DNA from: a bacterium
GTDB taxonomy: Bacteria; Patescibacteriota; Minisyncoccia; Phycocordibacterales; Phycocordibacteraceae
Length of the DNA: 64,000 nt
Assembly: GCA_021811365.1 (NCBI GenBank)
Contig: JAJZPB010000002.1
Coordinates: 8,162-72,161 of the forward strand
Direction: 5' to 3'
Position 1 is the stretch's first letter. Each line of letters starts with the position of its first letter. The notes under the pieces were generated by a model. It saw only the letters and a list, made by a program, of their open reading frames with translations. It searched no databases and was not told the DNA's origin. Shown here one piece after another: positions 27,767 through 64,000 of the stretch. Both the position numbers and the translations under genes were made by a program.

Positions 27767-27880
27767 CTGCCGCCCGAAGACTTTAGTATCGGACAGACCC
27801 GAGAGTCTTATTTGTAGCCATTATTACGCAGCACGTTTTTAGAAAAGCTAGATAGGGCGAAGGGATTCCGAACTTTTCCC
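27767..27880 (+). repeat. att-like repeat copy b
   Basis: Near-identical by eye to 26510-26620 over about 110 nt, including the ...cgcagcacgtttttagaaaagctagatagggcgaaggg tail. Confidence 0.7.
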
Positions 27881-29470: not shown

Positions 29471-29570
29471 TCCCTTCGCCTCCGCCAACACACTTTTTTA
29501 TCGGTGTCAACCCGAAGGCCCAAATCCACTACCCTCAGACTTTTTTATCGTGCAGACCCGGGAGCCTTAT
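29461..29570 (+). repeat. att-like repeat copy c (two tandem degenerate cores)
   Basis: cgccaacacacttttttatcggtgtcaacccgaaggcccaaatccactaccctcagacttttttatcgtgcagacccgggagcc. Closely matched by copy g at 51861-51960. Confidence 0.6.
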
Positions 29571-29636
29571 ACTGGAAAGCACCATGTTTTGTGCATGGTG
29601 CTTTCTGGGATAGCCGTGCTTCTCCAGGTACCTTTG

Positions 29637-30320: not shown

Positions 30321-31532
30321 ATGGACGATATAAAAATTATAAAAACCAAAGAAGACTACGAACGCGCGCTTCGACTCGTCGAGACGCTTGTCGATCGCGA
30401 CCCGGAATCCGGTTCCGCAGACGCAGATCGACTCACACTTCTCACGGCGCTCGTCAAGGAATACGAATCGAAGAGCTTTCCGGAGCATCTCCCCGACCCG
30501 ATTGAGGCAATCAAGTTCCGCATGGAGCAGGAAGATCTTAAGCCTGTGGATCTTGTGCCATATATCGGCAGTGCGGGAAGAGTCTCTGAAGTACTTTCTG
30601 GGAAACGTCAGCTCACGCTTGACATGGTGAGGGCGCTTTCTGCCGGTCTTGGCATTCCAGCGAAAGTTCTCATACAAAAACCGTCAAGAGATTTCGAATC
30701 ACAGAATTGGGATACTGCGCTCGTTAAGACGATGGAGCGGCGCGGCTACTTCGGCAAGAAGACAATGAAAGATCACACCAAATCCGAACTGATAAGCGGA
30801 TTCTTCGCAGCATTCGGTCACATGCAACCAGCCGTTTTATATCGGAAGACAAGCTTTCGGTCCGCGCCACGTACCGACAATAATGCCCTGCTCGCTTGGG
30901 GGAAGCGTGTGTTGCAGAAATCAGAGAAAATAAAAGTGCCAGCGAAATTCAAAGACGGCACGGTAACGCTCTCATTTATGTGCGCGGTACTGAATCTGAG
31001 TACCAGAGATAAAGGACCTGTGCTTGCACGAGATTACCTTAAAAAACACGGCATTAAATTAGTCATTGAGCCGCATCTCCCAAAAACACACCTCGATGGT
31101 GCCACGTTCTTCGCATTCAAGGCGAATCCCGTTATAGGACTCACTATCCGTCACGACCGACCTGATAACTTTTGGTTCACATTGATGCACGAGCTTGCAC
31201 ATGTTGCCCTCCATTACAACAACGGTGTTGAATCCTTCTATGACGAAAAATTGCAGGATAAGGACGGTATAGACATTGATCCCAAAGAGCAGGAGGCAGA
31301 CAAACTTGCAGAGGAATCTATTCTTCCGGAAAGCAAATGGGAGACGAGCGCGGCGAAGTCAACGCCGAACCAGTTCTCTACCGAAGACTTAGCTAACGAG
31401 CTCGGCGTACAGACCGCAGTCATAGCGGGAATGATTCGGTTCAAGCATCAGAACTTCTTCTACCTGAATAAAATCGTGAACGACGAGACTCTATCCGTTA
31501 AGAAGTATTTTGCCGAGGAATTTACCGACTAA
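30321..31532 (+). CDS. HigA-like HTH (XRE) antitoxin fused to ImmA/IrrE-family zinc metallopeptidase domain (COG2856-like)
   Basis: The N-terminal ~100 aa resemble HigA antitoxins (MDDIKIIKTKEDYERALRLVETL...). The C-terminal domain carries an HEXXH zinc site (LMHELAHVALH) in an ImmA/IrrE-type context. Confidence 0.8.
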   Translation: MDDIKIIKTKEDYERALRLVETLVDRDPESGSADADRLTLLTALVKEYESKSFPEHLPDPIEAIKFRMEQEDLKPVDLVPYIGSAGRVSEVLSGKRQLTLDMVRALSAGLGIPAKVLIQKPSRDFESQNWDTALVKTMERRGYFGKKTMKDHTKSELISGFFAAFGHMQPAVLYRKTSFRSAPRTDNNALLAWGKRVLQKSEKIKVPAKFKDGTVTLSFMCAVLNLSTRDKGPVLARDYLKKHGIKLVIEPHLPKTHLDGATFFAFKANPVIGLTIRHDRPDNFWFTLMHELAHVALHYNNGVESFYDEKLQDKDGIDIDPKEQEADKLAEESILPESKWETSAAKSTPNQFSTEDLANELGVQTAVIAGMIRFKHQNFFYLNKIVNDETLSVKKYFAEEFTD

Positions 31533-31535
31533 ACT

Positions 31536-32660
31536 ATGGCTACCATTAAACCCTACATCCCAATATTGCGATGGCGACCAGCTGAAATAAAGGCGCTGGA
31601 GAAGCTTTTCCCGCAAGACCGAGGGAATATCACGCCGTTAATAGAATTTGTGATGCCCGCTCCGTCAATCACTCGTAAAGGCGACAAAATCATCATTACA
31701 AAGACGCGTAAGGAGAAATTCTTGGAAGAGCTCCCGGATGTTGCCAAGAATTTGTTGAAGTCATGCGGTCAGATGCACATGCTTATCGACGTCCAGCAGC
31801 TCGACGCAGACATCAGGGCATCTTCGCTTGAGCAAATTCTCGCATCGTCGAAGGATTTGGATCTGTTTTCAATTCCTGTAACGTACATTATTCCTATGAT
31901 GGGCACGAGCGCCGATGCGGCTACCCGTGCTGCTGCCGTAAAATACGCCAAATCGAGCGGACATGGACTCTGCATACGTATCGATAAGTCACATCTCAAA
32001 GAGCCCAACCTGTCGTCTCAAATCGCTACCTTCGTCAAGGAGAACCAGCTCGATATAGGGAAAATAGATCTACTCATCGACCTGCGCGTCATTGATCAGG
32101 ATACGGCCGTCGCTGATGTTGTGAAGAAACTGAAGATCCTCCCGGACTTGCAAAAGTGGCGTTCATTCATCGTATCGGGAGGTGTGTTTCCTAAAGATTT
32201 GTCCGACTTTCTCCCGGGCGATGTACACCAGCTAGAGCGGTTTGATTGGAAACTGTGGAATAAGCTTCAAAAGACAGACTTACTTCGTAAGCCGTTGTTC
32301 TCCGACTACACCATTCAACATCCGTTCTATGAGTATGTAGCTGCCATTGGCAGTGCGAGCGTGCGATACACGGATGATGGTGAATGGTGGATTTTCCGGG
32401 GGACGAAGCCGGGTCATATCAACAGCAAGACTGGTAAAAAAGGGCCCGGGCGAGAGCAATACATCGGCCATGCACGCACGCTCATCAATCGAGTTTTCTA
32501 CAAAAAGTCTGGTTTTAGTTTTGGTGATGCAGAAATCACTCGAATTGCAGCAGCTGAAAATCAAAAGCCGGGGAGCCCGGCGACCTGGCTTACCATTGGT
32601 ATCAACCACCACATCACGCTAGCTGCACGTCAGACCGCCAGTCTTGCCGGGAAGATTTAA
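31536..32660 (+). CDS. Beta-protein-like (sce7725-like) protein, partner of the ImmA/HTH gene
   Basis: 374 aa beginning MATIKPYIPILRWRPAEIKALEKL. From recollection this matches the N-terminus of the 'beta protein'/sce7725 family that pairs with COG2856 ImmA genes. Family assignment is from memory, not a search. Confidence 0.5.
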   Translation: MATIKPYIPILRWRPAEIKALEKLFPQDRGNITPLIEFVMPAPSITRKGDKIIITKTRKEKFLEELPDVAKNLLKSCGQMHMLIDVQQLDADIRASSLEQILASSKDLDLFSIPVTYIIPMMGTSADAATRAAAVKYAKSSGHGLCIRIDKSHLKEPNLSSQIATFVKENQLDIGKIDLLIDLRVIDQDTAVADVVKKLKILPDLQKWRSFIVSGGVFPKDLSDFLPGDVHQLERFDWKLWNKLQKTDLLRKPLFSDYTIQHPFYEYVAAIGSASVRYTDDGEWWIFRGTKPGHINSKTGKKGPGREQYIGHARTLINRVFYKKSGFSFGDAEITRIAAAENQKPGSPATWLTIGINHHITLAARQTASLAGKI

Positions 32661-33228
32661 GAACATCCCACACGTACTCTTTAAGAGAGTCGATCTTCTG
32701 CGATTCAGCGAGCCGTTGATACACAGCCTCTCGTGGTTTTGTTCGAACACCATCGGCTTTGCCCAAATCCTCAAGCCTCTCGAGAGCCTCGTGCCTCCAT
32801 AGCAGTCGTGCAATCGAAATACTATCCTGCTCAAGATTATTTTGTGGACTCCTGATGTGGTTAAAAAAGACCGTACCATTCTCGTCCACGCGGGCCGTCT
32901 CGATACCCCACCAATCGGGCACCATTCTAAACGCATCCACGAAATGTTTGCTGCCCACTACAAGGGTTACCTGGTCGAATATGCTGTTGTAGGCATGCAT
33001 TTGCTCTGGCAAGCGGGTAAGCGTATCGCGATCACTCTTGATCTCGAAACCCCGCAGAGAACCGTTCACGACGGCGACGTCGATCCTAGCAGCTCCATGC
33101 CAGACTCCTAACTCAGGTATGACGCGGTAATTCGGATAGTCAACGACGAGCCGATTGACCAACGCTTCCCGAATGATTGTGTCGTTTGTTTGATTCATTT
33201 CTTGAAGATCAATACGACACGGGTCCAT
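32614..33228 (-). CDS. sce7726-like protein with PD-(D/E)xK nuclease-like motif
   Basis: VIPELGVWHGAARIDVAVVNGSLRGFEIKSDRD fits a D...E-x-K restriction-endonuclease-fold core. Convergent with the beta-like gene and overlapping it by about 47 nt. Confidence 0.5.
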   Translation of the reverse strand: MDPCRIDLQEMNQTNDTIIREALVNRLVVDYPNYRVIPELGVWHGAARIDVAVVNGSLRGFEIKSDRDTLTRLPEQMHAYNSIFDQVTLVVGSKHFVDAFRMVPDWWGIETARVDENGTVFFNHIRSPQNNLEQDSISIARLLWRHEALERLEDLGKADGVRTKPREAVYQRLAESQKIDSLKEYVWDVLKSSRQDWRSDVQLA

Positions 33229-33291
33229 GGATATATTTTACACGTAACATGCGCTGGCCGGATAGTCGCTCGCTGTGGATGCGACGCGCAT

Positions 33292-35772
33292 TCACATCTC
33301 CACGACTTTCATCGCTTCGTCGCCGTAGTGGTTGATGACCTTTACGGCGATCTTGCCTGTCTTAGGCTTCGGGAACGAACGTGATGTAGTCGAATGGAGT
33401 TCATCCCACACATCCTCCGGAATGTCCGCCTTCAGGGCCTTTTTGAGCTTCTCATACGGGTTGTCTGCCCCTAGGAAATACGCGTGAGTGACGAAAAATG
33501 CTTCGTCACTGTAGTTCGTGTCGATGAACCACGCGGCAATATCGTGCTCGAGCTCACCATCACCGGATGAGCGGATTTCGCTTTTCACGGGGTCATATAC
33601 GTCCATACCGACGATTTCGACGGTGACACCATCTTTCGATTCCTTCACATTTACCTGCGGCTCGCCAAAGGCAATGAATAGGTTGCCGGAGCCGGTCTTC
33701 TTGAGGAGATCGCCCATCGAGAGATCTGGGTTGATTTTCACCTTCATAAGGCGCAATCCCTCCTGTTGTTCGGATTCGGTAAACGCTGAGGCGTCAAAAG
33801 AAGTTGCTGCGACCACGAGCAAATCGGCAAAGTTCTTCGCTACGCGGATAGCGTCGCGGACGAAGTCATCGTCAACGCTACCGAATTCAGGACCGATGGC
33901 GACCGCGACCTTTTTAAGGCCCTCGACAGTCTTGTATTCGCCAACCGCTTGCACTTCGGGTCCACTCGGCAGGATCTCAAGATTCTCGAATTCGACACGG
34001 GCGCCTTTCTCACCGGTCTGCACCCCCGCAGACCTTAGGTTCTCAACAACTGTTTCGACGAATCGCTCCGACGCGATCATTTCCTGTGCATCGGATACAC
34101 GATGTGGCGCTAGCGACTCGACCGTAAAAGGACCGGAGACGCGTACGACATCCTTATTTTCTAGGGGCTGGTCATAAAGCACTTCCTCTTCGGGCTGCTC
34201 ATCATTCGCAAGCGACCTGAGTGTCACGTGCGGGACGGTCTTGTAGATGAATCCATCTGCCACGTTTGCTCTCTCGTCGCTCCCGTTTTCTTTGAGCTTA
34301 AAGTATGGGTATTGAGCTGTCATGAGCCGCGTGCGAGCAAGTGCGAGCGCAACGCGTGACGTGTCAGTTGTGATCCAGCGTCGGCCCCATTGCTCGGCAA
34401 CATATGCAGTCGTCCCTGACCCACATGTTGGGTCTAGGACGATATCTCCCGGATCGGTTGTCATTAAAATACATCGCCGAATAACCTCTGTGTTTGTTTG
34501 AACAACGTATTTTTTGTTGTCAGCACCAACGGTATCTCCCCAGGAGGCCAATAATTTGCTTACGGGGTAGTCTTCCTCGAAGTACCGGTAGGTTAGTCTG
34601 TTTCCTTCAACTTGAACCCTACCCTTCATTACAAGCCTCTCAAGGCCTTCTCTGGTGGTTCCGTAACCCGGCGGTCCCGGCGAATATTTCTTTCCTTCGA
34701 ATTCAAAATCGAATTGGCCGCTTGGGTTCGTGCCAGATGCGATGAGAGATTTCAGTAAATAAACCTGAGCGCCTTTTGGTAGCAGCTTGTGGTTATTTAG
34801 TTGCTCACGTGTCATTTGATGATGAGAACCATCTGGCATGCGATACCACTTGTAATGGAAATCACCCTCAGTGATTGTCTCAACAAAAAGACCACGGTAT
34901 TTAAGCGAGTCCTTGTCTTTCGCGTACCAAATTATGAAATCGTTCATTTGTTCCAAGAATTTTGCGCCGAGGGGCATTGTCTTTTTCCTGAATGGGATAA
35001 GCGCAATGAAATTCCCGCTTCCGAAGACCTCGTCCATGAGTACTCTAACCAGATGAACATTGGCATCATCAATCTGCACAAAGCACGAGCCGCTTTCTGT
35101 CAGAAGATCACGGGTGACAAGGAAGCGATCGCGCAAATACGAAAGGTAAGAATGGGTACCGAGCTCCCAAGTGTCGCGGAATGCCTTGATCTGTTCCGGC
35201 TGGCGGATCATGTCGTCGAGCTTGTTATCCTTCACGTCACGCTTGCGCGTTGAGACCTGCCAATTGCTACCGAATTTGATGCCGTATGGCGGATCGATGT
35301 AGACGGTTTGTACTTTCCCGCGCATACCCTCCTTCTCGAGAAGCGAATTCATGACGACGAGCGAGTCGCCCAGGATCATGCGGTTCTTCCAGTTATCTTC
35401 GTGCTTATAGAAATCGACCGCCTGATGCGCCTGGTCGGCCGCGAAGTCGCCAAAGAGCGAGATCATCGGCAATTCTTCATTAGCCCGCATCTTGAGCCGC
35501 GCGATGATGCCTTCCGGAGCGATATTTTCCTGTACGTAAATCGGTACAGTTGAGACGCTCATCTCAGCGCCCTCTTCCTCCTTACCAGCCCAGACGAGCT
35601 GCGGATCGAGCGACGGATCGTATGCGTATTTTTTCTTCACTTGCTGCTTTTCGCGCGGAGAAAGATCCCGCGATTCCTCCTGCGTCGGGATGCGTGTACG
35701 CGTCGTCTTGTGTTTGTAGCTTTTTACAGCTGCCGCCGTTGATAGTTCTGGTGTTTTCTTTCGTGATGCCAT
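33292..35772 (-). CDS. mod: Type III restriction-modification system methyltransferase (Mod), N6-adenine specific
   Basis: LVWAGKE N-terminal box, DPPYG (motif IV), and DPTCGSGTTAYVA (SAM-binding motif I) in the permuted order typical of type III Mod. Confidence 0.9.
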   Translation of the reverse strand: MASRKKTPELSTAAAVKSYKHKTTRTRIPTQEESRDLSPREKQQVKKKYAYDPSLDPQLVWAGKEEEGAEMSVSTVPIYVQENIAPEGIIARLKMRANEELPMISLFGDFAADQAHQAVDFYKHEDNWKNRMILGDSLVVMNSLLEKEGMRGKVQTVYIDPPYGIKFGSNWQVSTRKRDVKDNKLDDMIRQPEQIKAFRDTWELGTHSYLSYLRDRFLVTRDLLTESGSCFVQIDDANVHLVRVLMDEVFGSGNFIALIPFRKKTMPLGAKFLEQMNDFIIWYAKDKDSLKYRGLFVETITEGDFHYKWYRMPDGSHHQMTREQLNNHKLLPKGAQVYLLKSLIASGTNPSGQFDFEFEGKKYSPGPPGYGTTREGLERLVMKGRVQVEGNRLTYRYFEEDYPVSKLLASWGDTVGADNKKYVVQTNTEVIRRCILMTTDPGDIVLDPTCGSGTTAYVAEQWGRRWITTDTSRVALALARTRLMTAQYPYFKLKENGSDERANVADGFIYKTVPHVTLRSLANDEQPEEEVLYDQPLENKDVVRVSGPFTVESLAPHRVSDAQEMIASERFVETVVENLRSAGVQTGEKGARVEFENLEILPSGPEVQAVGEYKTVEGLKKVAVAIGPEFGSVDDDFVRDAIRVAKNFADLLVVAATSFDASAFTESEQQEGLRLMKVKINPDLSMGDLLKKTGSGNLFIAFGEPQVNVKESKDGVTVEIVGMDVYDPVKSEIRSSGDGELEHDIAAWFIDTNYSDEAFFVTHAYFLGADNPYEKLKKALKADIPEDVWDELHSTTSRSFPKPKTGKIAVKVINHYGDEAMKVVEM

Positions 35773-35784
35773 ATGCCTATTGTA

Positions 35785-38712
35785 CTAGCTTTGGTTCGCG
35801 ATGACTTCGCGTATTGTTTTCTGCGTCTCGTGAATGTCGCGGATCTCGACCATCGCCCAACGACCGAAGCCGCCGTGGTTATTGACCGCCGGAATCCAGA
35901 GGTCATTCGTGATCTTCACCTTCGATACTTTTTTCTGATCCTTCTCGCCGGTTACCTCGATAAGTAAATTCAGCACGTCGCCGTTCGGCAAGCGGATCCG
36001 CGCGATGTAATCGGGGTAGTAGAGATGGATCGCGCCGTTGCGCTCGTACGGGATGGTGAAATCGAGCTTGTAGTTCTTCGCATACGAGATGACTTCCTCC
36101 ATGTCTTCGAGTCGCTTCGCGACGCCCTGTTCCCAAACCTCGGTGTCGGCGACGACGTAGTTTAAATGGCTCTTCGTCGTCTCGAAGACCGGCCGTGTCG
36201 TGAGAAAATCGACGCCCGCGGTTGAGCCGCGCGGGTTGCGACTGGAAAGGACGGGGAGGAGTTTGCGCTCGCCCTCCTGATCGTCGAGATTCGCTTTCAC
36301 GATCGCGTGCTGGGTCTTCTCGGATGCGCCATGGAGATATTCGCCAATTGAGAGATAACCGATGAACATGTTGTCCTTAAGGATGACCTGCGTCCGCACG
36401 TACTTCTCGGCAATCTTGCGGAGCTGTGGGTAGAGCCAGTATTTCGATGCCCCGGACGCGTCGCGGTAATACCGCTCAAGGAGTTCCTTCGCCAGCATCT
36501 CGACGACCGTACCTTCCCGTCGTTCGCGGATCTTTTCCATCGTCTCGGTCGTCTCCGCGCCGATGATGCCCTCAAGCACGACCTTCGTCGTCTCGTTTTC
36601 GATGACCGTTTTCGAGTCGTCGGTAAATTTCGCCGCAAGTCTTTTCTCGTCGATTTCATAGTGATAGCCCTCGACGCGCGGGAATTCGATCTGGTATGTA
36701 GCAGCGCGTTCTGGAAGCGTCTTCACGTGATGGTACTCGACTGGCTCCGGAGGCGGCGTCGGCGTACCGCTCGAATCCCAAAGAATGAACGGCACGCCGT
36801 ACACTTCCGCGTACTCGGCGCGGAATAGGCCGTTCTCGTCCGGCGTGTAGTCGACGCGGCGGAGCGCACGCCCGACAACCTGCTCGCAGAGGAGCTGTGT
36901 CGAAAAGGCACGGACGCCGAGAATATGCGTCACCGTGTTCACGTCCCATCCTTCCGTGAGCATGGAGACCGATACGACGCACTTGATGTTTTCGCCAAGG
37001 CGTCCCGGCTTGCCGACCGTATTCATAACCTCTCGGAGGATCTCCTCATCCGTCGGCTCATCGCGGCCTGGGAAGCGGCGCTTGTATTCTTGCTTGAATT
37101 CGTCGATCTCTCGCGCGAATGTTTTCTTGAACTCAGGCGTCACACTCTCGCCACTCTCGAGACTCGCGCTGTCGATAAGGAGGGTGTTGGGCTTTTCGCG
37201 GAGCGCGAAGCCGTCCTCGTTTCGGAATACGTCGAGATGTCCTTTTTCGATTGATACCTGGCCGCTCGCAGTCTGCGATTCGTATCCGGCTATCCAGTCG
37301 TATACAAGCTTCGAAACCGCCATGTTGTTGCAGACAACAATCATCACGGGCGGCATGACGTTATGTCGCTTCTTCTTTTCCTCTTCGTATAGTTTGTAGT
37401 TTTTCTCGTAGCTGCCGTAAAGGGAGAGAAGCGCCGTCTCGAGTTTGCCCGGTAGACGCTCGGCCGGAAGCTCCTCGCGAATGTGTACCCAGAGATTCCG
37501 GAACTCCGGCAACGACTCGCGCCCGATACGATCGTCAGCGCTCGGAAGGCGCGGGATCTTTACGATGCCGCTTTCAAGGGCGTCGAGAAGCGAGAAATCG
37601 TATGTGACCCAGGGGAAAATCGTACCCTCAGGATAGCCGGAGCCCGAGAGGAAATACGGCGTCGCTGAGAGGTCGATGACCGCGTTCACGGTTGAACGCG
37701 ACGCGAGTGTCGTGAGCCCCGCGAGCCAGACTCTCGCGGCCTTGTTGTTTTCAGCCGCCTCGGCGTGCTCATCAGCAGAGAGCTTTTCGTCCGTAGGTTT
37801 CTCCTGGTAGCAGTGATGCGCCTCGTCGTTGATGACAAGAATGCGCGACTTGCCGGCGACCTGCTTGAAGACGCGTCGCGCCATCGCTTCCGGCGTTTCC
37901 TGTACGACATCCTCGTTGATGAGCCCTGCGGCTTTCATGACGCCACCGATCGCAAAGCGAGGATTCTGACGAAGCACCATCTGCTGGTAGTTGACGATAA
38001 GAATGTTCGCGCGATTGAGATCCTCCATGTCGGTAATCGTCACCACTTCGCGCTCGCGGTAATAGTTGTGCGGATTGTTCGGTTGGAGTACGTTCAGACG
38101 ATCGCGAATCGTGATGCCTGGCGCGACGACCACGAACGTATCCGTGAAGCGCGTGTCCTGCGGATATCGAATTTTGTTGAGCGTGTTGTACGCAATGATC
38201 ATCGCCATGACGACGGTCTTGCCGGAGCCGGTCGCGAGCTTAAACGCGAGGCGGTAGAGACCGCCGTTCGCATCGCGATTGACCGTCTTGAGCTCGTTGA
38301 TGATCCAGTGCTCGCCGACTTTCTCCGCGACCTCGTTTATATAAATGAGTGTTTCGAGCGCTTCGATCTGACAAAAGAAAAGGCGGTTCTCGCGCGTGTC
38401 GTCGGTCCAGTACCGGAGGAGGTCTTGGGTTGTCTTGGTCGTGCCGGAATATCCAGCCTTCCGCCATTCGGTCACTTTCACCCGAATCTTGTTGACGAAT
38501 TCGTTTTCCTGAAGGCGCTCGCTGCTCCACGCCTGCGCCGCAGGGTCGTGCCGTGCCTGGGCAACACCACGCCCACGCGGACGGGCTATGGGGATCTGAA
38601 CCGTGCTCGGACGCCGCGACTCGATAACCTCTTCAGTCAGGCCGCGTTCGTCGGATTTAAAATAGCGGCCTGGTTCCGCATAGGGAGAATTGAGAATCGG
38701 CGAGATTTTCAT
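35785..38712 (-). CDS. res: Type III restriction enzyme Res subunit (SF2 helicase plus C-terminal endonuclease)
   Basis: Walker A (ATGSGKT), DEAH box (INDEAHH), helicase C motifs (TEGWDV, QVVGRALR). Its stop lies 13 nt upstream of the mod start. Start placed at MKISPILNSPYAEPG (38710-38712). Confidence 0.9.
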   Translation of the reverse strand: MKISPILNSPYAEPGRYFKSDERGLTEEVIESRRPSTVQIPIARPRGRGVAQARHDPAAQAWSSERLQENEFVNKIRVKVTEWRKAGYSGTTKTTQDLLRYWTDDTRENRLFFCQIEALETLIYINEVAEKVGEHWIINELKTVNRDANGGLYRLAFKLATGSGKTVVMAMIIAYNTLNKIRYPQDTRFTDTFVVVAPGITIRDRLNVLQPNNPHNYYREREVVTITDMEDLNRANILIVNYQQMVLRQNPRFAIGGVMKAAGLINEDVVQETPEAMARRVFKQVAGKSRILVINDEAHHCYQEKPTDEKLSADEHAEAAENNKAARVWLAGLTTLASRSTVNAVIDLSATPYFLSGSGYPEGTIFPWVTYDFSLLDALESGIVKIPRLPSADDRIGRESLPEFRNLWVHIREELPAERLPGKLETALLSLYGSYEKNYKLYEEEKKKRHNVMPPVMIVVCNNMAVSKLVYDWIAGYESQTASGQVSIEKGHLDVFRNEDGFALREKPNTLLIDSASLESGESVTPEFKKTFAREIDEFKQEYKRRFPGRDEPTDEEILREVMNTVGKPGRLGENIKCVVSVSMLTEGWDVNTVTHILGVRAFSTQLLCEQVVGRALRRVDYTPDENGLFRAEYAEVYGVPFILWDSSGTPTPPPEPVEYHHVKTLPERAATYQIEFPRVEGYHYEIDEKRLAAKFTDDSKTVIENETTKVVLEGIIGAETTETMEKIRERREGTVVEMLAKELLERYYRDASGASKYWLYPQLRKIAEKYVRTQVILKDNMFIGYLSIGEYLHGASEKTQHAIVKANLDDQEGERKLLPVLSSRNPRGSTAGVDFLTTRPVFETTKSHLNYVVADTEVWEQGVAKRLEDMEEVISYAKNYKLDFTIPYERNGAIHLYYPDYIARIRLPNGDVLNLLIEVTGEKDQKKVSKVKITNDLWIPAVNNHGGFGRWAMVEIRDIHETQKTIREVIANQS

Positions 38713-38784
38713 GTAGATAAAGGGCCAAGCTAGAAAAGAATACTTAGCGCAGTACTTGCATATTGGACCATTTTTCATAATATT

Positions 38785-40107
38785 TCAATCAGCCGAAATT
38801 GCGCCTCTAGTTACGCGCAGCTTTGTCTTTAGGCAGCCCAGCAGTTCTCGCTTCTCCTCCTTCGAACCGTCGACCAGGATATATTTGGCGTAGGTTGAGA
38901 CATCGATTTCTTGATCGGGACTTGCCGGGTTCGGCAGCCCAAGTACGGTCCGTTGGAAGCGGCCATAACGCCTTAGCTCATCCCGCAACTTCGCTTTTAC
39001 GTCGAGCTCGTTGAAGTCGATCTTGTCGAATATCTTTATAAGCTGCTCGATGAGCTCCTCCTCACGCAGATATTTGTTCCCCTTGCAGTAGTGGTCCTTG
39101 GAGCGGTTGCAGCCGTAGTAGACATAGCGGGCGGTGGTGCCGTTTTTGCGTGGCTTGTATTTCTCCTCCGCGCTTATGCCGGAGCCGCACTGGCCGCAGG
39201 TCATGAGCCGCGTGAAGGCGAACTCCCTGCTCTCGCGCACTACGACCTCTCGGCGCAGCTGCGACTGCACCTGGTCGAAGAGCTCTTTCGTAATCAGGGG
39301 CTCGTGCTTGCCCTGGTACCAATTGCCACTTCCTTTCGGAAACTCGAAGGTGCCGCAGTAGAAGGTATTCTGGAGGGTGCGGAACACATTGCTGAATGCC
39401 AGGTTCTTGTTCCCTTTCGTTTTGAAGTTGAGCTCGAACTTGAGCCAGTGGTGCACTTTCCGGCCCGACCATTTCTCGTATGCCACCTTTTCGAACATCT
39501 TGCGCACAACCGGTCCGCGTTCGGGGTCGATAACCATCTGACAGCGCTTCTCCATATCTTTCTGGGAGCGGTATCCGGTCGGCGGCACGGTTGGCCACAG
39601 TCCCATCTCCACTCTCGCCCTGAGCCCTCGCTTCACGTTTATGCCACGATTATCGTTCTCAAGCTTTGCCTGACCTCCCAAGATCGTGAGGAGGAATTTT
39701 TCATTCGGATTGTTTGAGAACCGTTGCCCGAAGGTGCGTATTTCCTCGAGGTACCCGGCGTCCATAAGGTCTACGACACGGCCGAGGTCGCCAGCGTTCC
39801 TGCTGATGCGGTCCGTTGCCCAGGTAAGGATGCCGTTGTACTTGCCGCTTTTAATTTCTTCCACGATCTCGTTGAAGACCGGCCGCTGGCCGGTATCCTT
39901 AGCCGAATGGCTTTCCCGCTTGAGCGCCACCACCTCAAGGCCGTCGCGCTCCGCGAGCGCAAGCATCTCTTTGATTTGGCTATCTATACTCAGGACCTGC
40001 CGTTCCTCGCTCTCCGTGCTCTTACGAGCATAAAGGCAGAATTTGACCTTAATGGGGGCTTGTATCTGCTTGGCTGGGAATCCTGCTGGTGCTTCTATTG
40101 TGTTCAT
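38785..40107 (-). CDS. Large serine recombinase (resolvase/invertase N-terminal domain plus recombinase and zinc-ribbon domains)
   Basis: YARKSTESEERQVLSIDSQ gives the catalytic Ser in the resolvase-type N-domain. GILTWATDRISRN, a recombinase domain, and a Cys cluster (CGQCGSG...CNRSKDHYC) follow. Confidence 0.9.
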   Translation of the reverse strand: MNTIEAPAGFPAKQIQAPIKVKFCLYARKSTESEERQVLSIDSQIKEMLALAERDGLEVVALKRESHSAKDTGQRPVFNEIVEEIKSGKYNGILTWATDRISRNAGDLGRVVDLMDAGYLEEIRTFGQRFSNNPNEKFLLTILGGQAKLENDNRGINVKRGLRARVEMGLWPTVPPTGYRSQKDMEKRCQMVIDPERGPVVRKMFEKVAYEKWSGRKVHHWLKFELNFKTKGNKNLAFSNVFRTLQNTFYCGTFEFPKGSGNWYQGKHEPLITKELFDQVQSQLRREVVVRESREFAFTRLMTCGQCGSGISAEEKYKPRKNGTTARYVYYGCNRSKDHYCKGNKYLREEELIEQLIKIFDKIDFNELDVKAKLRDELRRYGRFQRTVLGLPNPASPDQEIDVSTYAKYILVDGSKEEKRELLGCLKTKLRVTRGAISAD

Positions 40108-45786: not shown

Positions 45787-46230
45787 TCAGCTGCCCACAT
45801 CTCGCGAGCTCTTAGGCTCGCGTTCGCGCTTCCGCCTCTGCAGTTCGAACGTTTCTTTGCTGACGAGAATTCCATCGTCCTGGTCCTCAATATCGACAAG
45901 CATAGGACTCTCCCGCCGCCTCTGACGCGTGTCCGAATACTCAGATGCCTTTGGTGCGTAGCGCGGGGAGTTGTTCGATAGGAAGTACTTTATTGCTCCC
46001 ATGTCCCCCGCTTTGACTTTGTTCACGAGCTGCATTTCGCCGACGTCGCAGAGGTCTTCCCGGGCGAACTCCATAGTCTCTTCGACGAGACGGCCGAATT
46101 CCGGATTGCGCTTCATCCAGCGGTATATGGTTGAGCGGTCAATGCCGTGCTTACGCGCAACATGCGCGATGAACGGGGTCCTCGCAAGGTCTTCGAGCAC
46201 CTTCTTCCGTATGTTCTTGCTATACGCCAT
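45787..46230 (-). CDS. HTH-domain protein (terminase-small-subunit-like / transposase-HTH-like)
   Basis: IAHVARKHGIDRSTIYRWMKRNPEF is a helix-turn-helix. The C-terminus is acidic/basic. Sits immediately downstream of the ParB-methylase. Confidence 0.5.
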   Translation of the reverse strand: MAYSKNIRKKVLEDLARTPFIAHVARKHGIDRSTIYRWMKRNPEFGRLVEETMEFAREDLCDVGEMQLVNKVKAGDMGAIKYFLSNNSPRYAPKASEYSDTRQRRRESPMLVDIEDQDDGILVSKETFELQRRKREREPKSSRDVGS

Positions 46231-47563
46231 TCACTTTTACGCGCTTCTGCCCCGTGTGCTTTTCCCAGCGATTGAGAATCACCTCTGCGTATACGGGACT
46301 CTTCTCCATGATGCAGCAGCGTCGCCCGAGCGCGACCGACGCCATGAGGGTTGAGCCCGAACCGCCGAACGGCTCGAGCACGAGCTGCCCGCGGCGCGTG
46401 AGCACCTTGATGTACGGGATGAGCAGTGGCAGCGGCTTCACACCGAAGATGATGCCCTGGCCCGAAGACTTCTCGTCAGCGGCATTGTAGTCAAGGAAAT
46501 CGGTCGGGCAGTACTTCTTGTCCTTGCCGTACGGCTCCCAGTGCGGCTTTCCCGCGATACCGAAGAGCGCGGTGCGGTATTCCTCCTCGAACAAACCCTC
46601 CTCGTCGCCCAAGTTAAGGCCGCCGAATTCCTCGGTCGTTCCAACCATGGCGATGTCGTGTTTGCTGAAAAACTTATGCTGTCCGGCATACCCCTGGTTG
46701 CGGTTCGGGAGGTGCCAGACGAGCATGTTGCGCACCTTCCAGTGCTTCTCCATTTCGCCCCACACCTCGCGCAGGTTCTTCCAGTTTTCGTAGCAGATGA
46801 TGGCAAAGTCGGGAGCCGCCACCTTCGCCACGTTATCCATCCAGAGAGTCGTGAAGTCGGGCGGAATTGACTCGGTTTCAAGATATCGACGGTTCTTTTT
46901 CGCGCCAAAGCCTACCGTAGGTTCACCTGCACGCGTCTTGCCGTGGAGATAATCTAAACGGTATGGTGGGTCGGTCATCACCATATCGGCTTTTTCCGTG
47001 CCCATGAGCGCGAGCATGTCGGCTTCGATAGTGCTGTCGCCAATATAGAGACGGGAGCCGTCGAGATCGTACAAGTCGCCCTTCTGGCTCGTTATGGCGC
47101 TGATGCCAGCCTTGCCGAGCGCTTTCTCGAGGTCGAAATGTTCTTCTGCGCTCTCTTCTTCAAAAATCGCATCGAGCTCTTCTGAGCTGAACCCCACCTC
47201 CGTGAGGAACGATTCGTCGAATTCAGCGAGCAGCTCATAGTCCCATTCCCCTACGGCCTTGTTTAGCCTTAGGCATAGGTCTCTTTCCCTTTCGATATCG
47301 GGAATGTCGACGTACACAATGGGGACGAATTCGTACTTAAGCTGCTTGAGCGCCTCGTACCGAAGATTGCCCCCAATAATAATGCCTTCGCGCCCGGGAG
47401 CGTGGTTCACAACGAGCGGGTCGACGACGCCGTGCTTCGCGATGCTGTCGGTTACGGCTTTTTTGGTCGACTCGTCAATTACTCTCGGATTATAGGGGGC
47501 ATGCCTAAGCGAGTCGGTTGGAACGTACTCGATGCGGAGCTCGGTTTGGGTGGTGTTGGCCAT
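46220..47563 (-). CDS. ParB-like nuclease domain fused to DNA methyltransferase (N6-A/N4-C, DPPY type)
   Basis: The N-terminus has ParB N-domain motifs (NPRVIDESTKKAVTDSIAKHGVVDPLVV). The core has DPPY and a C-terminal EPFGGSGSTL SAM-binding motif. This architecture is common on phages and plasmids. Confidence 0.85.
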   Translation of the reverse strand: MANTTQTELRIEYVPTDSLRHAPYNPRVIDESTKKAVTDSIAKHGVVDPLVVNHAPGREGIIIGGNLRYEALKQLKYEFVPIVYVDIPDIERERDLCLRLNKAVGEWDYELLAEFDESFLTEVGFSSEELDAIFEEESAEEHFDLEKALGKAGISAITSQKGDLYDLDGSRLYIGDSTIEADMLALMGTEKADMVMTDPPYRLDYLHGKTRAGEPTVGFGAKKNRRYLETESIPPDFTTLWMDNVAKVAAPDFAIICYENWKNLREVWGEMEKHWKVRNMLVWHLPNRNQGYAGQHKFFSKHDIAMVGTTEEFGGLNLGDEEGLFEEEYRTALFGIAGKPHWEPYGKDKKYCPTDFLDYNAADEKSSGQGIIFGVKPLPLLIPYIKVLTRRGQLVLEPFGGSGSTLMASVALGRRCCIMEKSPVYAEVILNRWEKHTGQKRVKVNGV

Positions 47564-47767
47564 TACGGTTGGGTCTTTAAAGGGGCGCGTTGTAAAAGGA
47601 AGCCCCTCTATCCACACTACGGCCGGTTTTGCGAAATTTGAGAAATTTGACAGGCGTCTAGTTTTAATTTACTGTGCGAACAGCTTCTCGCATGCCAACG
47701 TTCCCAAATAGGGCTGAAACAAGCCGCCTTTGGGAGGCGTATAGGCAAATAGAGTATCCCGTTCCTT

Positions 47768-47950
47768 TTGGAGGCACCCATGCTCGCACGCACCGTCGAC
47801 CACCCCTACATGCTCGCCATGTTCAAGGACCTCGAACTCACCGAAACCGAGATCCGAAACCTCACGACCCAGCGGACTCCGGAACAGGACAGGGCGCATA
47901 CCCCAAACCCCGTTCCCGCACTAGCCCTTCCCGGTCCGGCGGCAAGCTGA
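47768..47950 (+). CDS. Possible small conserved protein (paralogue at 52443-52631)
   Basis: MFKDLELTETEIRNLTT versus MFADLELTQTEIRAYTT are conserved at the amino-acid level between the two duplicated segments, while the nucleotides have diverged. Confidence 0.35.
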   Translation: MEAPMLARTVDHPYMLAMFKDLELTETEIRNLTTQRTPEQDRAHTPNPVPALALPGPAAS

Positions 47951-48018
47951 CCAAGCCAGCAGCCTCTGACTCATCTCACGCCACCCCAGACGCTCGACGT
48001 CCTTGGGGTGGTTTTTCT

Positions 48019-48405
48019 TTAGCGCACCCAGCGCAGCATCGGCGCTTTGGCGCCTTTCGGGAAGTCTTTTTGAAGACGCGGCGCAAATAGAGCGAGGTCG
48101 GTCCTGGAGGACTTCCTCAACTTGGCTATCTCCGCGTCGGTCTCGACGGGCAGGTAGGTGCTGTACTGCGGGTCATCTCCGTCCACCCAGTCTATTTCCT
48201 CGTAGAACTCAAAGAAGTAGCGCTGATCGCACTCCCGGCATCGGAGAAGGTACCGCCAGAAGTGGCTATCCTTGTAGTATGTTTCGAGCAATTCGAACGG
48301 TCCTGAGATCGGTGCGTTCACGAGCTCCGGATACTTCCAGAGCGCGCATTGCGTGGGAGCCTTTAATCGGTTATACGCCGCACTCTCTTTTCTTCTGTTG
48401 GGCAT
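48019..48405 (-). CDS. Hypothetical protein (paralogue of 52702-53103)
   Basis: 128 aa reading ...LWKYPELVNAPISGPFELLETY...RCRECDQRYFFEFYEEIDWVDGDDPQYSTYLPVETDAEIAKL. The second copy is conserved. Confidence 0.5.
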   Translation of the reverse strand: MPNRRKESAAYNRLKAPTQCALWKYPELVNAPISGPFELLETYYKDSHFWRYLLRCRECDQRYFFEFYEEIDWVDGDDPQYSTYLPVETDAEIAKLRKSSRTDLALFAPRLQKDFPKGAKAPMLRWVR

Positions 48406-48420
48406 AGTGGTGATGTGCGT

Positions 48421-48745
48421 TATCGGCTAATCTCCTCGCCGATTCCGCAGACGACTACTATGCAAAAGCGGCTCGGAGTTTTGATCCAGCCCATTGGCTG
48501 AATGAAATCTCCCAACCGCTTTGCGATCAGTCGCGCGCGCCATCTGGCTCCCCGCAGATTTCCCAGTTCGCCTACCCTCATCAGGAGGCGCGCGCGGTCC
48601 GCATTCGGTGCGCGGACTGCACTATTTCCTCTCAAGGAACAACTTAATTGTACCAGAAATGAAGGTAGTAACGGAGTGTCGCATTTGTTGCATTTCCAAA
48701 GACAGACCTTAGACCCGAAGGGTTCCGAATCCACCATTAGAGGAA
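48421..48745. repeat. Non-coding repeat R, copy 1 (copies 2 and 3 at 53105-53445 and 63866-64000)
   Basis: The shared core reads ...gcgatcagtcgcgcgcgccatctggctccccgcagatttcccagttcgcctaccct... An indel between copies 1 and 2 breaks any frame, so the repeat is non-coding. Confidence 0.65.
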
Positions 48746-48781
48746 CCAGGAATAGCCTTATGTTGCCTCAGCGACAAAGTT

Positions 48782-48860
48782 TGAATCCCGAGTGGCCCGC
48801 CCGAAGACTTTTGTATCGGACAGACCCGAGAGTCTTGTTTTGAGCCATTTTACGGTACGC
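48782..48860 (+). repeat. att-like repeat copy d (truncated)
   Basis: tttgaatcccgagtggcccgcccgaagacttttgtatcggacagacccgagagtcttgttttgagcc. It includes a degenerate T-loop/acceptor tRNA 3' fragment. Confidence 0.65.
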
Positions 48861-48951
48861 ATATGAAAAAATCTAGACAACCCCCAACGGGACTCGAGGT
48901 GCTGTTCCATGCCACAAAAAGAATAGTGGCGACCGCAGGGTTCGGTTGCCA

Positions 48952-49518
48952 CTATTTTGGCGTGACAAGGATTGCCTTGCCAGCACCGTAGTCTTTTTTC
49001 ATGTCTGCCAATGTTGCGATTTCAACGTCGCCGCCTCCACCATAGACAGACACATACATTCCGAAACCAACGTATATGGCGGCATGGTGGAAAAATAAGT
49101 CTGAGTCCAGTAAAAATACTATGTTGCCAGGCGTACCTTCCTCAGCTTCACACCAGGACGTATTCCACCACTGGCCCCACTCAAAACCCCAGTGGGGATG
49201 TTGGTCTGATGGAATACCAGCAACAAGACAGGCGAATGCGTAGCAGTCAAAAGTCATGTTCACCTTGGCGTGATGGCAATGAAGAAATTCAACGAGGGCT
49301 TTCTTTGTCTCAGGCGTGAGTACAAGCTTCGTTGAGCAAAACGCCAGATACCAGGGCCGTATAAGAATCTCCACGTCATCAACAGCACGATAGTCCTCGC
49401 GCTCATGGAAGCAGCGTAGCTCGCCTTCTTCTTTAATCATGAGCGGGAAGACTCTCATCCTCCTCCCATCAGCGGTCATGACAGTCTGTTTTCTTGGAGT
49501 GACGAAGATCGTAAGCAC
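48952..49518 (-). CDS. Hypothetical protein with NlpC/P60-like (papain-fold) Cys-His signature
   Basis: TFDCYAFACLVAG (Cys) followed by FHHAAIYVGFGMYV (His), in the order seen in NlpC/P60/LRAT-like hydrolases. No signal peptide. Confidence 0.45.
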   Translation of the reverse strand: MLTIFVTPRKQTVMTADGRRMRVFPLMIKEEGELRCFHEREDYRAVDDVEILIRPWYLAFCSTKLVLTPETKKALVEFLHCHHAKVNMTFDCYAFACLVAGIPSDQHPHWGFEWGQWWNTSWCEAEEGTPGNIVFLLDSDLFFHHAAIYVGFGMYVSVYGGGGDVEIATLADMKKDYGAGKAILVTPK

Positions 49519-49779: not shown

Positions 49780-49860
49780 TACGGTTCGAGAAAGGTAATC
49801 CTGGTCCTGGTGGGCCCGCCCGTAGTATTATTTTATTTATAGGACAGACCCGAACACTTA
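49780..49860 (+). repeat. att-like repeat copy e (tRNA-Trp 3'-end remnant with internal insertion)
   Basis: ggttcgagaaaggtaatcctggtcctggtgggcccgcccgtagtattattttatttataggacagacccgaacac. Confidence 0.55.
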
Positions 49861-50532: not shown

Positions 50533-50597
50533 CCCGGAACCTTTGCTGCGACGCGAGGGAATCGGCTAGAACACCCTTATGGCGTGATACTAAAAGT

Positions 50598-50715
50598 CTG
50601 AATCTCGGGTAGCCCGCCAAACATTTTTGTCGGACAAACCTGAGAGCCTTGTTTTATGGCGTTATTATGCAACATGTTTTCAAAAGGCTAGATGAGAGCA
50701 GAGCGATTAGGACTC
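50598..50715 (+). repeat. att-like repeat copy f (diverged full-length copy)
   Basis: ctgaatctcgggtagcccgccaaacatttttgtcggacaaacctgagagccttgttttatggcgttattatgcaacatgttttcaaaaggctagatgagagc aligns along the full length of copy a. Confidence 0.6.
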
Positions 50716-52028: not shown

Positions 52029-52247
52029 TCAGCAAACAACTCCGCCGCCAATAATGATGCCTTCGCGCCCGGGAGCGTGGTTCACAACGAGCGGGTCGAC
52101 GACGCCGTGTTTCGTACTGCTCTCTACAATCGCCCTTTTGGTTGAGTCATCGACGACTCGCGGATTGTACGGCGCGTGCGTGAGTGAGTCAGTCGGAACG
52201 TATTCGATACGGAGTTTTGTTTGTGCGGTGGTGGCCATGGTGAGCGT
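52029..52247 (-). pseudogene. Truncated N-terminal fragment of a ParB-like/methyltransferase gene (paralogue of 46220-47563)
   Basis: MATTAQTKLRIEYVPTDSLTHAPYNPRVVDDSTKRAIVESSTKHGVVDPLVVNHAPGREGIIIGG, then an immediate stop. The nucleotide sequence matches about 47380-47565. Confidence 0.7.
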
Positions 52248-52442
52248 AAATAGCAAGGTGTGATAATGGAATGTCCTCTCTTTATGGGAGTGGTGAATTT
52301 GCAAAATTAGAACCATTTGACACCGTCCGTGTTGTAATTTACAATACATACAGCTTCTCGCACGACACGCTTCCCAAAGGGGCTGAAACAAGCCATATTC
52401 TGGCAGCGTATACATAAACGGAGACCAAAACGTTCCTTTTCC

Positions 52443-52631
52443 ATGGAGGCAGCATTGCCCAACACAGCGCCCAATGTCGACCCGTTCATCGCTGAGATGT
52501 TCGCGGACCTCGAACTCACCCAAACAGAGATCCGGGCCTACACAACTCACCCGTCCCGGGAGGGGCAGAACCAAGCGCGGAAGCCTAGCCGTGACTATGA
52601 GACTCCTCCCCGTTCGGAGGCGGCATGCTGA
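52443..52631 (+). CDS. Possible small conserved protein (paralogue of 47768-47950)
   Basis: See 47768-47950. Confidence 0.35.
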   Translation: MEAALPNTAPNVDPFIAEMFADLELTQTEIRAYTTHPSREGQNQARKPSRDYETPPRSEAAC

Positions 52632-52701
52632 CGAAATCAGCTTGTTCTTCCATCACCTGTGCCACCCCAAAGCGCTTAACGGCGTTGGGGGTGGCTTTTC
52701 T

Positions 52702-53103
52702 TTATTGCACCCAGCGCAGCGTCGGCTCCTTGGCGCCCTTTGGGAAGTCCTTCTGGAGGCGTGGCGTGAATTGAAGGAGTTCAACCTGCGTGGCGTTTTG
52801 CAACTTTGCTATTTCCGCGTCGGTCTCGACGGGCAGGTAGGTGCTGTACTGCGGGTCCTCGCCGTCGACCCAGTCGATCTCTTCGTAGAACTCAAAGAAG
52901 TAGCGCTGCCCGCACTCGCGACATCGGAGAAGGTACCGCCAGAGGTGGCTATCCTTGCTATATGTTTCGAGCAATTCGAACGGTCCTGAGATCGGTGCGT
53001 TCACGAGCTCCGGATACTTCCAGAGCACACACTGGGTGGGGGTGCGCAGTTGATTATATGCTGAGCACGTTTTCTTTTTGTTAGTCATAGCGATGATGTA
53101 CAA
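52702..53103 (-). CDS. Hypothetical protein (paralogue of 48019-48405)
   Basis: 133 aa with the same LWKYPELVNAPISGPFELLETY...RCRECGQRYFFEFYEEIDWVDGEDPQYSTYLPVETDAEIAKL core. Confidence 0.5.
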   Translation of the reverse strand: MYIIAMTNKKKTCSAYNQLRTPTQCVLWKYPELVNAPISGPFELLETYSKDSHLWRYLLRCRECGQRYFFEFYEEIDWVDGEDPQYSTYLPVETDAEIAKLQNATQVELLQFTPRLQKDFPKGAKEPTLRWVQ

Positions 53104-53104
53104 T

Positions 53105-53445
53105 ATCGGCTAATCTCCTCGCCGGTTCCGCAGACGACTTCAATGCAAAAAGCGGCTCGGAGTTTTGATCCAGCCCATTGGCTGAATGAAATCTCCCAAC
53201 CGCTTTGCGATCAGTCGTGCGTACCATCTGGCTCCCCGCAGATTTCCCAGTTCACCTACCCTTTCGGGAGGTACGCACGGTCCGCAGTAAGTGCGCGAAC
53301 TGCACGATTTCCTTTCAAGGAACATCGTAAGTATACCAGAAAGGTGGTCGTAAACAGAGTATTGGATGTGTTGCATTCTCCACAAGCGGCGCCGGAGAGT
53401 AAACCCGAAGGGCTTTGCGTCGCTACCGAAGAAAGTCAAGAATAG
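53105..53445. repeat. Non-coding repeat R, copy 2
   Basis: Aligns with 48421-48745 for most of its length (copy 1 diverges in the last ~100 nt) and with 63866-64000 over the shared core. Confidence 0.65.
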
Positions 53446-53464
53446 TCCTGTACTGCCCTGACGA

Positions 53465-53520
53465 TATAGTTTGAATCCCGAGTTTGCCGTCCGAAGACTT
53501 TCCTATCTTTGTAACCTGAG
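53465..53520 (+). repeat. att-like repeat copy h
   Basis: tagtttgaatcccgagtttgccgtccgaagactttcctatctttgtaacctgag. Confidence 0.55.
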
Positions 53521-63857: not shown

Positions 63858-63865
63858 CTAGGACA

Positions 63866-64000
63866 AAGTCTTCGCGATTAGTCGCGCGTGCCATCTGGCT
63901 CCCCACAGATTTCCCAGTTCGCCTACCCTTTCGGGAGGTACGCACGGTCCGCAGTAGGTGCGCGAACTGCACGATTTCATTTCAATGAACATCGTAATCA
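63866..64000. repeat. Non-coding repeat R, copy 3 (truncated by window end)
   Basis: tcgcgcgtgccatctggctccccacagatttcccagttcgcctaccctttcgggaggtacgcacggtccgcagtaggtgcgcgaactgcacgatttc matches the core of copies 1 and 2. Confidence 0.65.

Follow-up and report, generated by a model that had tools for sequence, protein, structure and literature searches.

A conserved structured RNA upstream of genes in Patescibacteria, probably a riboswitch-like leader

The stretch of DNA analyzed here, called the window in the following, comprises 64,000 nucleotides (nt) of contig JAJZPB010000002.1 (assembly GCA_021811365.1, positions 8,162 to 72,161) from a bacterium of the Patescibacteriota. It carries three copies of a non-coding repeat, R. 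The informative strand of R is the minus strand, where R stands directly upstream of an open reading frame (ORF) for a protein of 128 amino acids (aa), and we describe R as a structured RNA that probably acts as a leader of the genes behind it. Repeat search, MAFFT alignment and blastn placed the copies at 48410-48830, 53094-53510 and 63863-63997. A 22-nt core probe, used with up to 3 mismatches, matched exactly at these three sites (shuffle expectation 0), and the three copies listed by the first-pass annotation were confirmed by all of these methods. No fourth copy was found in the window by nhmmer or with a covariance model. In the blastn comparison 48410-48760 and 53094-53382 share 87% identity, 48519-48648 and 63870-63998 share 85%. 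Copies 1 and 2 lie, as had been proposed, inside a larger segmental duplication of 1.45 kb (47369-48817 versus 52044-53507, 70-97% identity by segment), which further takes in two ORFs, of 56 and 128 codons, and the 5' end of a ParB-methylase gene. The R copies differ by indels of 1 nt (twice) and 7 nt. The 1-nt indel reported earlier is real in the MAFFT alignment and falls, on the RNA strand, into the U tract (U4 versus U5). The three copies are as follows.

48464-48646, minus strand: R copy 1, structured RNA of 183 nt, running from directly behind the -10 box through the U tract; covariance model score 200.8 bits, E 1e-43
53147-53329, minus strand: R copy 2 RNA; covariance model score 199.5 bits
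63863-63997, minus strand: R copy 3, internal fragment with hairpins H1 and H2 and the three-way junction; covariance model score 123.7 bits

Copy 3 had been taken to be merely cut by the window end. A longer contig of the same organism (L032), read across the site, showed an internal fragment of about 130 nt instead, and in both the window and this contig copy 3 has no -10 box, no hairpin P3, no terminator and no downstream gene. It carries one new mismatch in helix P2, and H1 is altered on both sides (UUCAU/AUGAA). Most simply, copy 3 is a truncated, recent remnant.

For the search in other genomes the most conserved stretch, GGGTAGGNNAACTGGGAAATC (minus strand), was employed as an exact pattern with 19 specified bases over 21 nt. 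Among the GTDB species genomes it matched L012, which is the contig of L001's own metagenome-assembled genome (MAG) and thereby of a related organism, L014 (Niyogibacteria), L013 (a contig of a Saccharibacteria MAG whose sequence equals that of metagenome locus L024) and L015. In the metagenomes of the Joint Genome Institute (JGI) 11 loci were matched, 9 of them true. L015 and L020 were chance matches. A different pattern yielded one copy on an IMG/VR contig, L031. The true relatives share 70-81% identity over 80-190 nt and lie in non-coding DNA, as judged by blastn and sequence reading, while their flanks are unrelated. In total, an R-like RNA was found in 11 other distinct sequences (L013 to L037) besides L001, and by this distribution the R motif appears to be an element spread across the Candidate Phyla Radiation (CPR). 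A viral origin was considered and rejected: the only true IMG/VR match, L031, adjoins a type I restriction-modification system, not phage genes, and BLAST against cultured phages and plasmids gave no R match.

The secondary structure was analyzed in two alignments, one of 13 sequences (A3) and one of 15 distinct sequences (A5), several of them closely related. Complete R copies (n = 14) were anchored on the regular expression TGnTAYAMT. The order on the minus strand is the TGnTAYAMT box, a hairpin, a three-way junction and a long hairpin with U tract, with the start codon about 60 nt further on. The elements of copy 1 are listed here.

48626-48639, minus strand: hairpin H1 (UUCCU-UGAG-AGGAA), present in a subset of copies; 75% of the cells of the helix paired
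48597-48617, minus strand: hairpin H2 (GUCCGC...GCGGAC); 4 of 6-7 pairs covary, 91% of cells paired
48532-48596, minus strand: three-way junction, formed by the 10-bp helix P2 enclosing P2a (48575-48585) and P2b/P2c (48546-48572)
48555-48563, minus strand: invariant loop GGAAAUCUG, which caps P2b/P2c; 7 nt are complementary to AGAUUUC in the terminator-like 5' arm
48512-48532, minus strand: conserved GACU and hairpin P3 (CUGAUCGC-AAA-GCGGUUGG); 93% of cells paired
48464-48519, minus strand: long irregular terminator-like hairpin with U tract; 20 pairs in copy 1, 23 in the RNAalifold consensus, 95% of cells paired
48406-48463, minus strand: leader behind the terminator-like hairpin; its AGUC is a possible pairing partner of the GACU that follows P2, and a small hairpin carries GGAG in the loop

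Using RNAalifold and pair counts, 95.4% (13 sequences) and 91.1% (15 sequences) of cells were found paired, and in the final structure of 45 pairs the value was 96.2% for the 15 distinct sequences. In controls with the partners slid by 1-3 columns, 33-48% were paired; for the final structure the comparison is with 35-48%, obtained on a closely related one. A total of 18-19 pairs were changed on both sides, and none of 500 shuffles attained the observed paired fraction or covariation score. R has, with this, the conserved structured domain with covariation by which riboswitches are recognized. In P2, 8 of 10 pairs covary with 95% of cells paired, and single positions show U-A, G-C and A-U. The P2 stem reads CGCGCGCGCC/GGCGCGCGCG in copy 1 and CGUGCGUACC/GGUACGCACG in copy 2, the latter fully compensated relative to copy 1; in L001 (CGUGCGCGCC/GGCGCGCACG) the substitutions are fully compensated as well. 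For P2a one compensated change from C-G to U-A was read by eye in L037. P2b changes from GGC/GCC to GGU/ACC in L031, and P2c from CUG/CGG to GGG/UCC in L037 (C-G and U-G to G-C and G-C). The unpaired segments of the junction are very short, with 1, 2 and 4 nt.

The structure contains 72 G-U cells, and the modelled strand is 96.2% paired versus 86.0% for the opposite strand. The G-U pairs therefore identify the minus strand of the window as the RNA strand. A plus-strand RNA was tried and rejected, as its fold z was -2.75 versus -4.9 for the minus strand and the G-U pairs would turn into A-C mismatches. The first-pass annotation had offered a structured RNA as one of its alternatives and had held that missing copies outside the locus and missing covariation would argue against it. 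Both copies elsewhere and covariation were found, which favors the RNA; covariation in three helices, the strand-specific G-U pairs and the conservation in unrelated genomes bear this alternative out. Its statement that R is not a gene holds as well. The indels of 1 and 7 nt leave no conserved frame, the stem substitutions are compensatory, and the ORFs overlapping R gave no Pfam match, so that a protein-coding gene was rejected.

The genes behind R were compared for all complete copies. In the window these are two paralogues.

48019-48405, minus strand: ORF128, conserved protein of 128 aa downstream of copy 1; 69 homologues
52702-53088, minus strand: second ORF128 paralogue, downstream of copy 2; 79% identical to the ORF128 of copy 1

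In 14 of 14 complete copies an ORF on the same strand starts at most about 95 nt after the U tract, and R shares this co-oriented 5' leader position with riboswitches. In 7 of these 14, the first gene behind R or the next one encodes a RelA/SpoT-type HD_4 phosphohydrolase (L013, L017, L019, L025, L026, L034, L037). When three further HD_4 proteins were picked regardless of R, R stood ahead of the operon in two cases and not in one. The gene order in L034-L036 is R, HD_4 and a 61%-identical ORF128 homologue (L034 4789-5142) with overlapping stop and start codons, which ties the ORF128 of the window to the HD_4 operon. ORF128 itself was found in an operon after HD_4, alone after R, and next to queC and dnaX without R. 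As R is absent at these distant homologues near queC/dnaX (L007-L011 3001-3384), it is not tied to ORF128 as such. An uncharacterized 288-aa family follows directly after R in L037 (2110-2976, ahead of HD_4) and in L023 (minus strand, from about 636), with 55% identity over 112 aa between the two. We propose that the regulated operon is a variable set around the HD_4 phosphohydrolase, the ORF128 family and the 288-aa family.

The AlphaFold model of ORF128 has a pLDDT (predicted local distance difference test) of 89.5; Foldseek gave no fold match in the PDB, and no Pfam family was found. Invariant Cys, Trp and Asp positions were observed in the ORF128 family. Convergent with ORF128 lies a small ORF of 56-62 codons (47780-47950 and 52443-52631, both plus strand; L001 3454-3624), which is present in both duplicated segments and the related MAG, shows the common core FxDLELTxTEIR and gave no family match. 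The gene for a ParB-N/DNA-methylase lies at 46220-47617. Its duplicate (52044-52238 versus 47369-47563) keeps only the first 65 codons or so, and the methylase stretch in the second duplicated segment is a truncated pseudogene copy.

Signals for initiation and for alternative pairing were then read from the complete copies. Upstream of the RNA the following features were found.

48647-48655, minus strand: extended -10-like box TGGTACAAT of copy 1, fits TGnTAYAMT
53330-53338, minus strand: -10 box TGGTATACT of copy 2, fits TGnTAYAMT
48673-48694, minus strand: direct repeat AATGCAAC-AA-ATGCGAC upstream of the -10 box, conserved only in copy 1, copy 2 and L001

The TGnTAYAMT box stands directly upstream of 14 of 14 complete copies, which is positional conservation only, since the box served as anchor. 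The direct repeat is a possible operator for a lineage-specific regulator. At the other end, U4-U7 follow the long hairpin in 14 of 14 complete copies. The conserved GACUrAyCG, located between P2 and the long hairpin, pairs with GCGGUUGG as P3, and GCGGUUGG is common to P3 and the base of the terminator-like 5' arm. Changes in P3 keep the pairing (G-U to A-U, U-G to C-G or U-A, one double change), making it a candidate anti-terminator. The loop sequence GAAAUCU is complementary to AGAUUUC of the same 5' arm in 14 of 14 sequences with both segments. While the 5' arm of the terminator-like hairpin is invariant, its 3' arm varies to remain complementary (AAAACUCCGAG versus AAAUCUCUUAG), the asymmetry to be expected for a 5' arm with a second partner. 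When the sequence is cut short ahead of the 3' arm, P3 appears in the predicted folds, in several sequences together with the loop-arm helix. Furthermore, an RGUC located 5-12 nt past the U tract can pair with GACU over 4-10 bp in 12 of 14 complete copies (copy 1: about 48450-48456), and the flanks co-vary (CGACU/AGUCG versus UGACU/AGUCA); the read-through RNA may thus have an extra long-range helix. The calculated energies are -25 to -31 kcal/mol for the terminator-like hairpin, -11.5 kcal/mol for the loop duplex and -5.5 to -7.4 kcal/mol for P3 in three copies without insert. In the modelled folds the terminator should be the default state.

We regard R as probably a cis-acting structured leader RNA of the minus strand with riboswitch-like transcription attenuation, a reading built on comparative sequence data. 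A sigma-70-type promoter with extended -10 box would start transcription a few bases before the first hairpin. The nascent RNA would fold into H2 and the three-way junction (P2, P2a, P2b/c), displaying invariant junction and loop nucleotides, and about 15 nt further the long hairpin with its U tract, a putative intrinsic terminator, would stop transcription by default after about 185 nt. The invariant 5' arm of this hairpin would have two alternative upstream partners, the GACUrAyCG stretch (as P3) and the invariant loop GGAAAUCU. The three-way junction would sense a signal, and this would set the choice between the terminator and read-through with P3 and the loop-arm helix. Most simply, the signal would be a small molecule, and a nucleotide alarmone is the obvious guess because the HD_4 gene recurs downstream. 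In the window each of the two ORF128 paralogues, located at the ends of two tandem cassettes of the tRNA-Trp island, would be under a full switch of its own. The narrower proposal, that R is a Patescibacteria-specific riboswitch class sensing an alarmone ((p)ppGpp, pGpp, (p)ppApp) or a related second messenger and turning on the HD_4 operon with its partner proteins of unknown fold, is tentative, and we hold it to be possible rather than probable.

Several observations weigh against this attenuation model. A simple sigma-70 scan does not call the -10 box, no -35 match was found upstream of it, and a simple terminator scan does not call the long hairpin. Three mismatches interrupt the stem of this hairpin, its loop is long, and the U tract of copy 1 consists of only four U. 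The energy of the terminator-like hairpin far exceeds that of P3 plus the loop duplex, and switching would therefore need a kinetic or factor-assisted route. The pairing of loop and arm is invariant on both sides, so that covariation does not speak for it. Most riboswitch expression platforms vary in sequence, whereas the terminator-like hairpin is conserved; together with the GACU/RGUC pairing this means that the hairpin could be a structural domain of a longer RNA, not a terminator. The downstream genes are heterogeneous, with unrelated small proteins in L014, L021 and L031, which weakens a single-ligand logic. Finally, the sample of 15 sequences, several of them closely related, is small.

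Some of these points fit other explanations. Sequence conservation of a strong terminator-like hairpin is found in many small RNAs (sRNAs), and R could be an sRNA in its own right, about 185 nt long and equipped with promoter and terminator, acting in trans or binding a protein, with the downstream gene being separate or incidental. The promoter-like box and the hairpin with U tract do bracket a compact RNA in all complete copies, the downstream genes are heterogeneous, and copy 3 retains the core helices without a downstream gene. A free-standing gene would, however, show mixed orientations, whereas in 14 of 14 complete copies an ORF of the same orientation begins at most about 95 nt after the U tract; moreover, HD_4, ORF128 and the 288-aa family recur there, conserved sequences compete with the terminator-like stem, and conservation runs past the U tract to the start codon. 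We consider such an sRNA unlikely, if still deserving attention. A clearly smaller chance is given to a processive-antitermination or factor-dependent leader of the type of HK022 put, EAR or the protein-dependent attenuators, in which the RNA or a bound protein modifies the polymerase and no small-molecule ligand is involved. A promoter-proximal structured RNA with a terminator-like hairpin immediately after it, located in variable or defence-type islands, would agree with this. Nevertheless, the neighbourhoods examined hold no conserved protein partner, the mutually exclusive pairing of P3 and terminator is typical of structure-switching attenuators and not of put-type RNAs, and the Rfam families of that type do not match R.

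The remaining explanations place the function of R, if any, in the DNA. The first-pass annotation had put every copy beside an attachment (att)-like site or boundary and had suggested the terminal region of an integrating element, such as recombinase arm sites. The att-like repeats derive from a tRNA gene.

26446-26518, plus strand: tRNA-Trp(CCA), origin of the att-like repeats, at the proximal border of the island
48776-48842, plus strand: att-like degenerate tRNA-Trp 3' end with about 35 nt of downstream flank near copy 1; 87.5% identity over 56 nt to 26511-26566
53462-53507, plus strand: second att-like site, adjoining copy 2; matches 26511-26566

The adjacency was found for copies 1 and 2; copy 3 has no adjoining att-like site in the longer contig L032. 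The site near copy 1 lies upstream of the promoter box of R and outside the RNA. If R were the arm-site or terminal region of elements integrating at tRNA-Trp, this would agree with the position of copies 1 and 2 and of the MAG DBS1-3.bin59 copy, which all neighbour att-like tRNA-Trp 3' fragments, the distance to the start of the RNA being about 130 nt. Against it, R occurs without att and att without R: four att-like repeats (at 27770, 29537, 49804 and 50593) have no R alongside, and among the 11 other sequences L016 and L019, the two relatives with a nearby tRNA gene, hold no repeat of the tRNA 3' end, while no tRNA gene was found in the remaining relatives scanned (L034 and L037 were outside the scan). 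These relatives sit as 5' leaders, also in non-mobile contexts, the compensatory changes and the G-U pairs of one strand are the mark of RNA-like conservation, and the ORFs tested gave no tyrosine integrase, only a large serine recombinase (38785-40107) and a helix-turn-helix transposase fragment. An att or arm region was rejected on these grounds, and we give it very little weight.

The proximity to att-like sites can be explained by the architecture of the island. It extends from tRNA-Trp (26446-26518) to about 900 nt past the window end, as seen in the longer contig L032, and separates the tRNA from a methyltransferase/GH15 pair, which in MAG DBS1-3.bin59 lies about 3.5 kb from the same tRNA. 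In both genomes the module of R and ORF128 is found at or near the island end farthest from tRNA-Trp; it adjoins the far border in L001, and in the case of copies 1 and 2 of the window its neighbour is an internal att-like repeat. R is near att-like sites because this module is the last cassette of the tRNA-Trp island, and no recombination role is needed. Functionless duplicated intergenic DNA, or a single-stranded DNA hairpin (ssi/Frpo-type) of the leading region of a mobile element, appears just as improbable as the arm sites. Copies 1 and 2 are indeed part of the 1.45-kb duplication, and a ParB-methylase gene, common in leading regions, is nearby. The view of R as simple duplicated intergenic DNA nevertheless fails on its presence as a 5' leader in unrelated genomes, with 70-80% identity in distant Patescibacteria and unrelated flanks. 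The strong covariation, the lack of any plasmid or phage match and the 72 G-U cells, which equal A-C mismatches in the complementary DNA strand and are weak as pairs in DNA, also stand against inert or single-stranded DNA.

The island was also inspected for its other contents. The tRNA-Trp 3' end with about 35 nt of flank occurs in seven progressively degenerate copies (26511-26566, 27770-27856, 29537-29573, 48794-48849, 49804-49854, 50593-50693 and 53462-53507), which delimit serial cassettes of 0.8-19 kb. A defence-type block at 30321-40107 comprises a pair of an IrrE-like M78 peptidase and a 'Beta protein', a DNA methylase (33292-35772), a ResIII helicase (35785-38778) and the large serine recombinase (38785-40107). 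The G+C content of the window, about 55%, is unusually high for a Patescibacteria genome, and TopA (16956-19340) is about 75% identical to proteins of Parcubacteria, Paceibacterota and Kaiserbacteria, which marks the genome as Paceibacteria/Kaiserbacteria-like.

A scan for a known RNA family, as advised by the first-pass annotation, gave no match for R. Using the 4227 covariance models of Rfam 15, only three tRNAs reached the gathering threshold in the whole window. With E up to 10, the region 47500-49000 yielded only microRNA models and RsmY at 16-17 bits versus thresholds of 57-78, and L014 nothing relevant. The twelve homologous loci gave only tRNAs and LOOT RNA, away from the R-like motif. 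Literature searches by topic and by literal sequence returned no description of R, only unrelated primers. Individual identities were rejected in turn. For a hammerhead ribozyme, CUGAUGA is found only in copy 1 and CCCGAAA in copy 2, variable elsewhere, and there was no Rfam match. The signal recognition particle (SRP) RNA, raised by the distant ORF128 homologues adjacent to dnaX, gave no Rfam SRP match, and R is absent there. Leader-peptide attenuation would need an ORF, and the 29-codon ORF in copy 1 is unconserved and in L014 ends after a single codon.

Patescibacteria account for a large part of the diversity of bacteria; their genomes are tiny, hardly any of them has been cultured, and to our knowledge little has been reported on their gene regulation. 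A covarying leader RNA common to Saccharibacteria, Paceibacteria-type lineages and the organism of the window is a rare, directly testable regulatory element, and its position ahead of a RelA/SpoT-type hydrolase would tie it to stringent-response-like signalling in Patescibacteria. Even without a ligand, R is a new RNA family absent from Rfam, and it would group ORF128, the 288-aa family and an HD_4 subfamily in one regulon. If R binds a ligand, it would add a riboswitch class and could supply an inducible switch for Patescibacteria genetics, a tool that the field describes as missing (PMC11665869). Should the alarmone reading be true, R would be, among ultra-small episymbionts, the first RNA switch defined as metabolite-sensing, and would give access to the signal that these organisms monitor.

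R was finally compared with known systems. LOOT RNA (RF03000) occurs on the same kind of Patescibacteria contigs; it was observed on two unrelated contigs of the CPR, at L013 689-812 and L018 1668-1792, each time some 5 kb away from the R-like motif. Its structure is unrelated, its locus is separate, and R does not score against the LOOT model. With HK022 put, EAR and the lambda PR'-tR' 6S RNA, R shares the position of a structured RNA close to the promoter, with a terminator-like hairpin behind it and accessory genes downstream, in variable or mobile regions, and the expected default product of R, a short terminated transcript of about 190 nt, would resemble the lambda 6S/put type. No similarity in sequence or structure was found to these RNAs, which were compared through Rfam only, and we know of no competing terminator/anti-terminator pairing in them and of none of them in Patescibacteria. 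The ppGpp riboswitch is subtype 2a of ykkC (Sherlock et al., 2018, as cited in PMC11109978). By its gene association R comes closest in theme to this riboswitch: with HD_4 in 7 of 14 operons, R may, like it, connect a leader RNA with alarmone metabolism; the two folds have nothing in common, however, and the ykkC models give no match to R. The ppGpp class mainly controls genes for amino acid biosynthesis and transporters in Firmicutes. In contrast to the three-way-junction riboswitches with transcriptional control (purine, thiamine pyrophosphate), R matches no Rfam riboswitch model, has very short junctions and conserves the sequence of its terminator-like hairpin. Like them, R is a 5' leader co-oriented with its gene, with a covarying closing stem and two hairpins, conserved junction and loop nucleotides, and a hairpin with U tract whose 5' arm can alternatively pair with upstream sequence; in working principle it resembles them. 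We take R for a new class of a system type that is already known.

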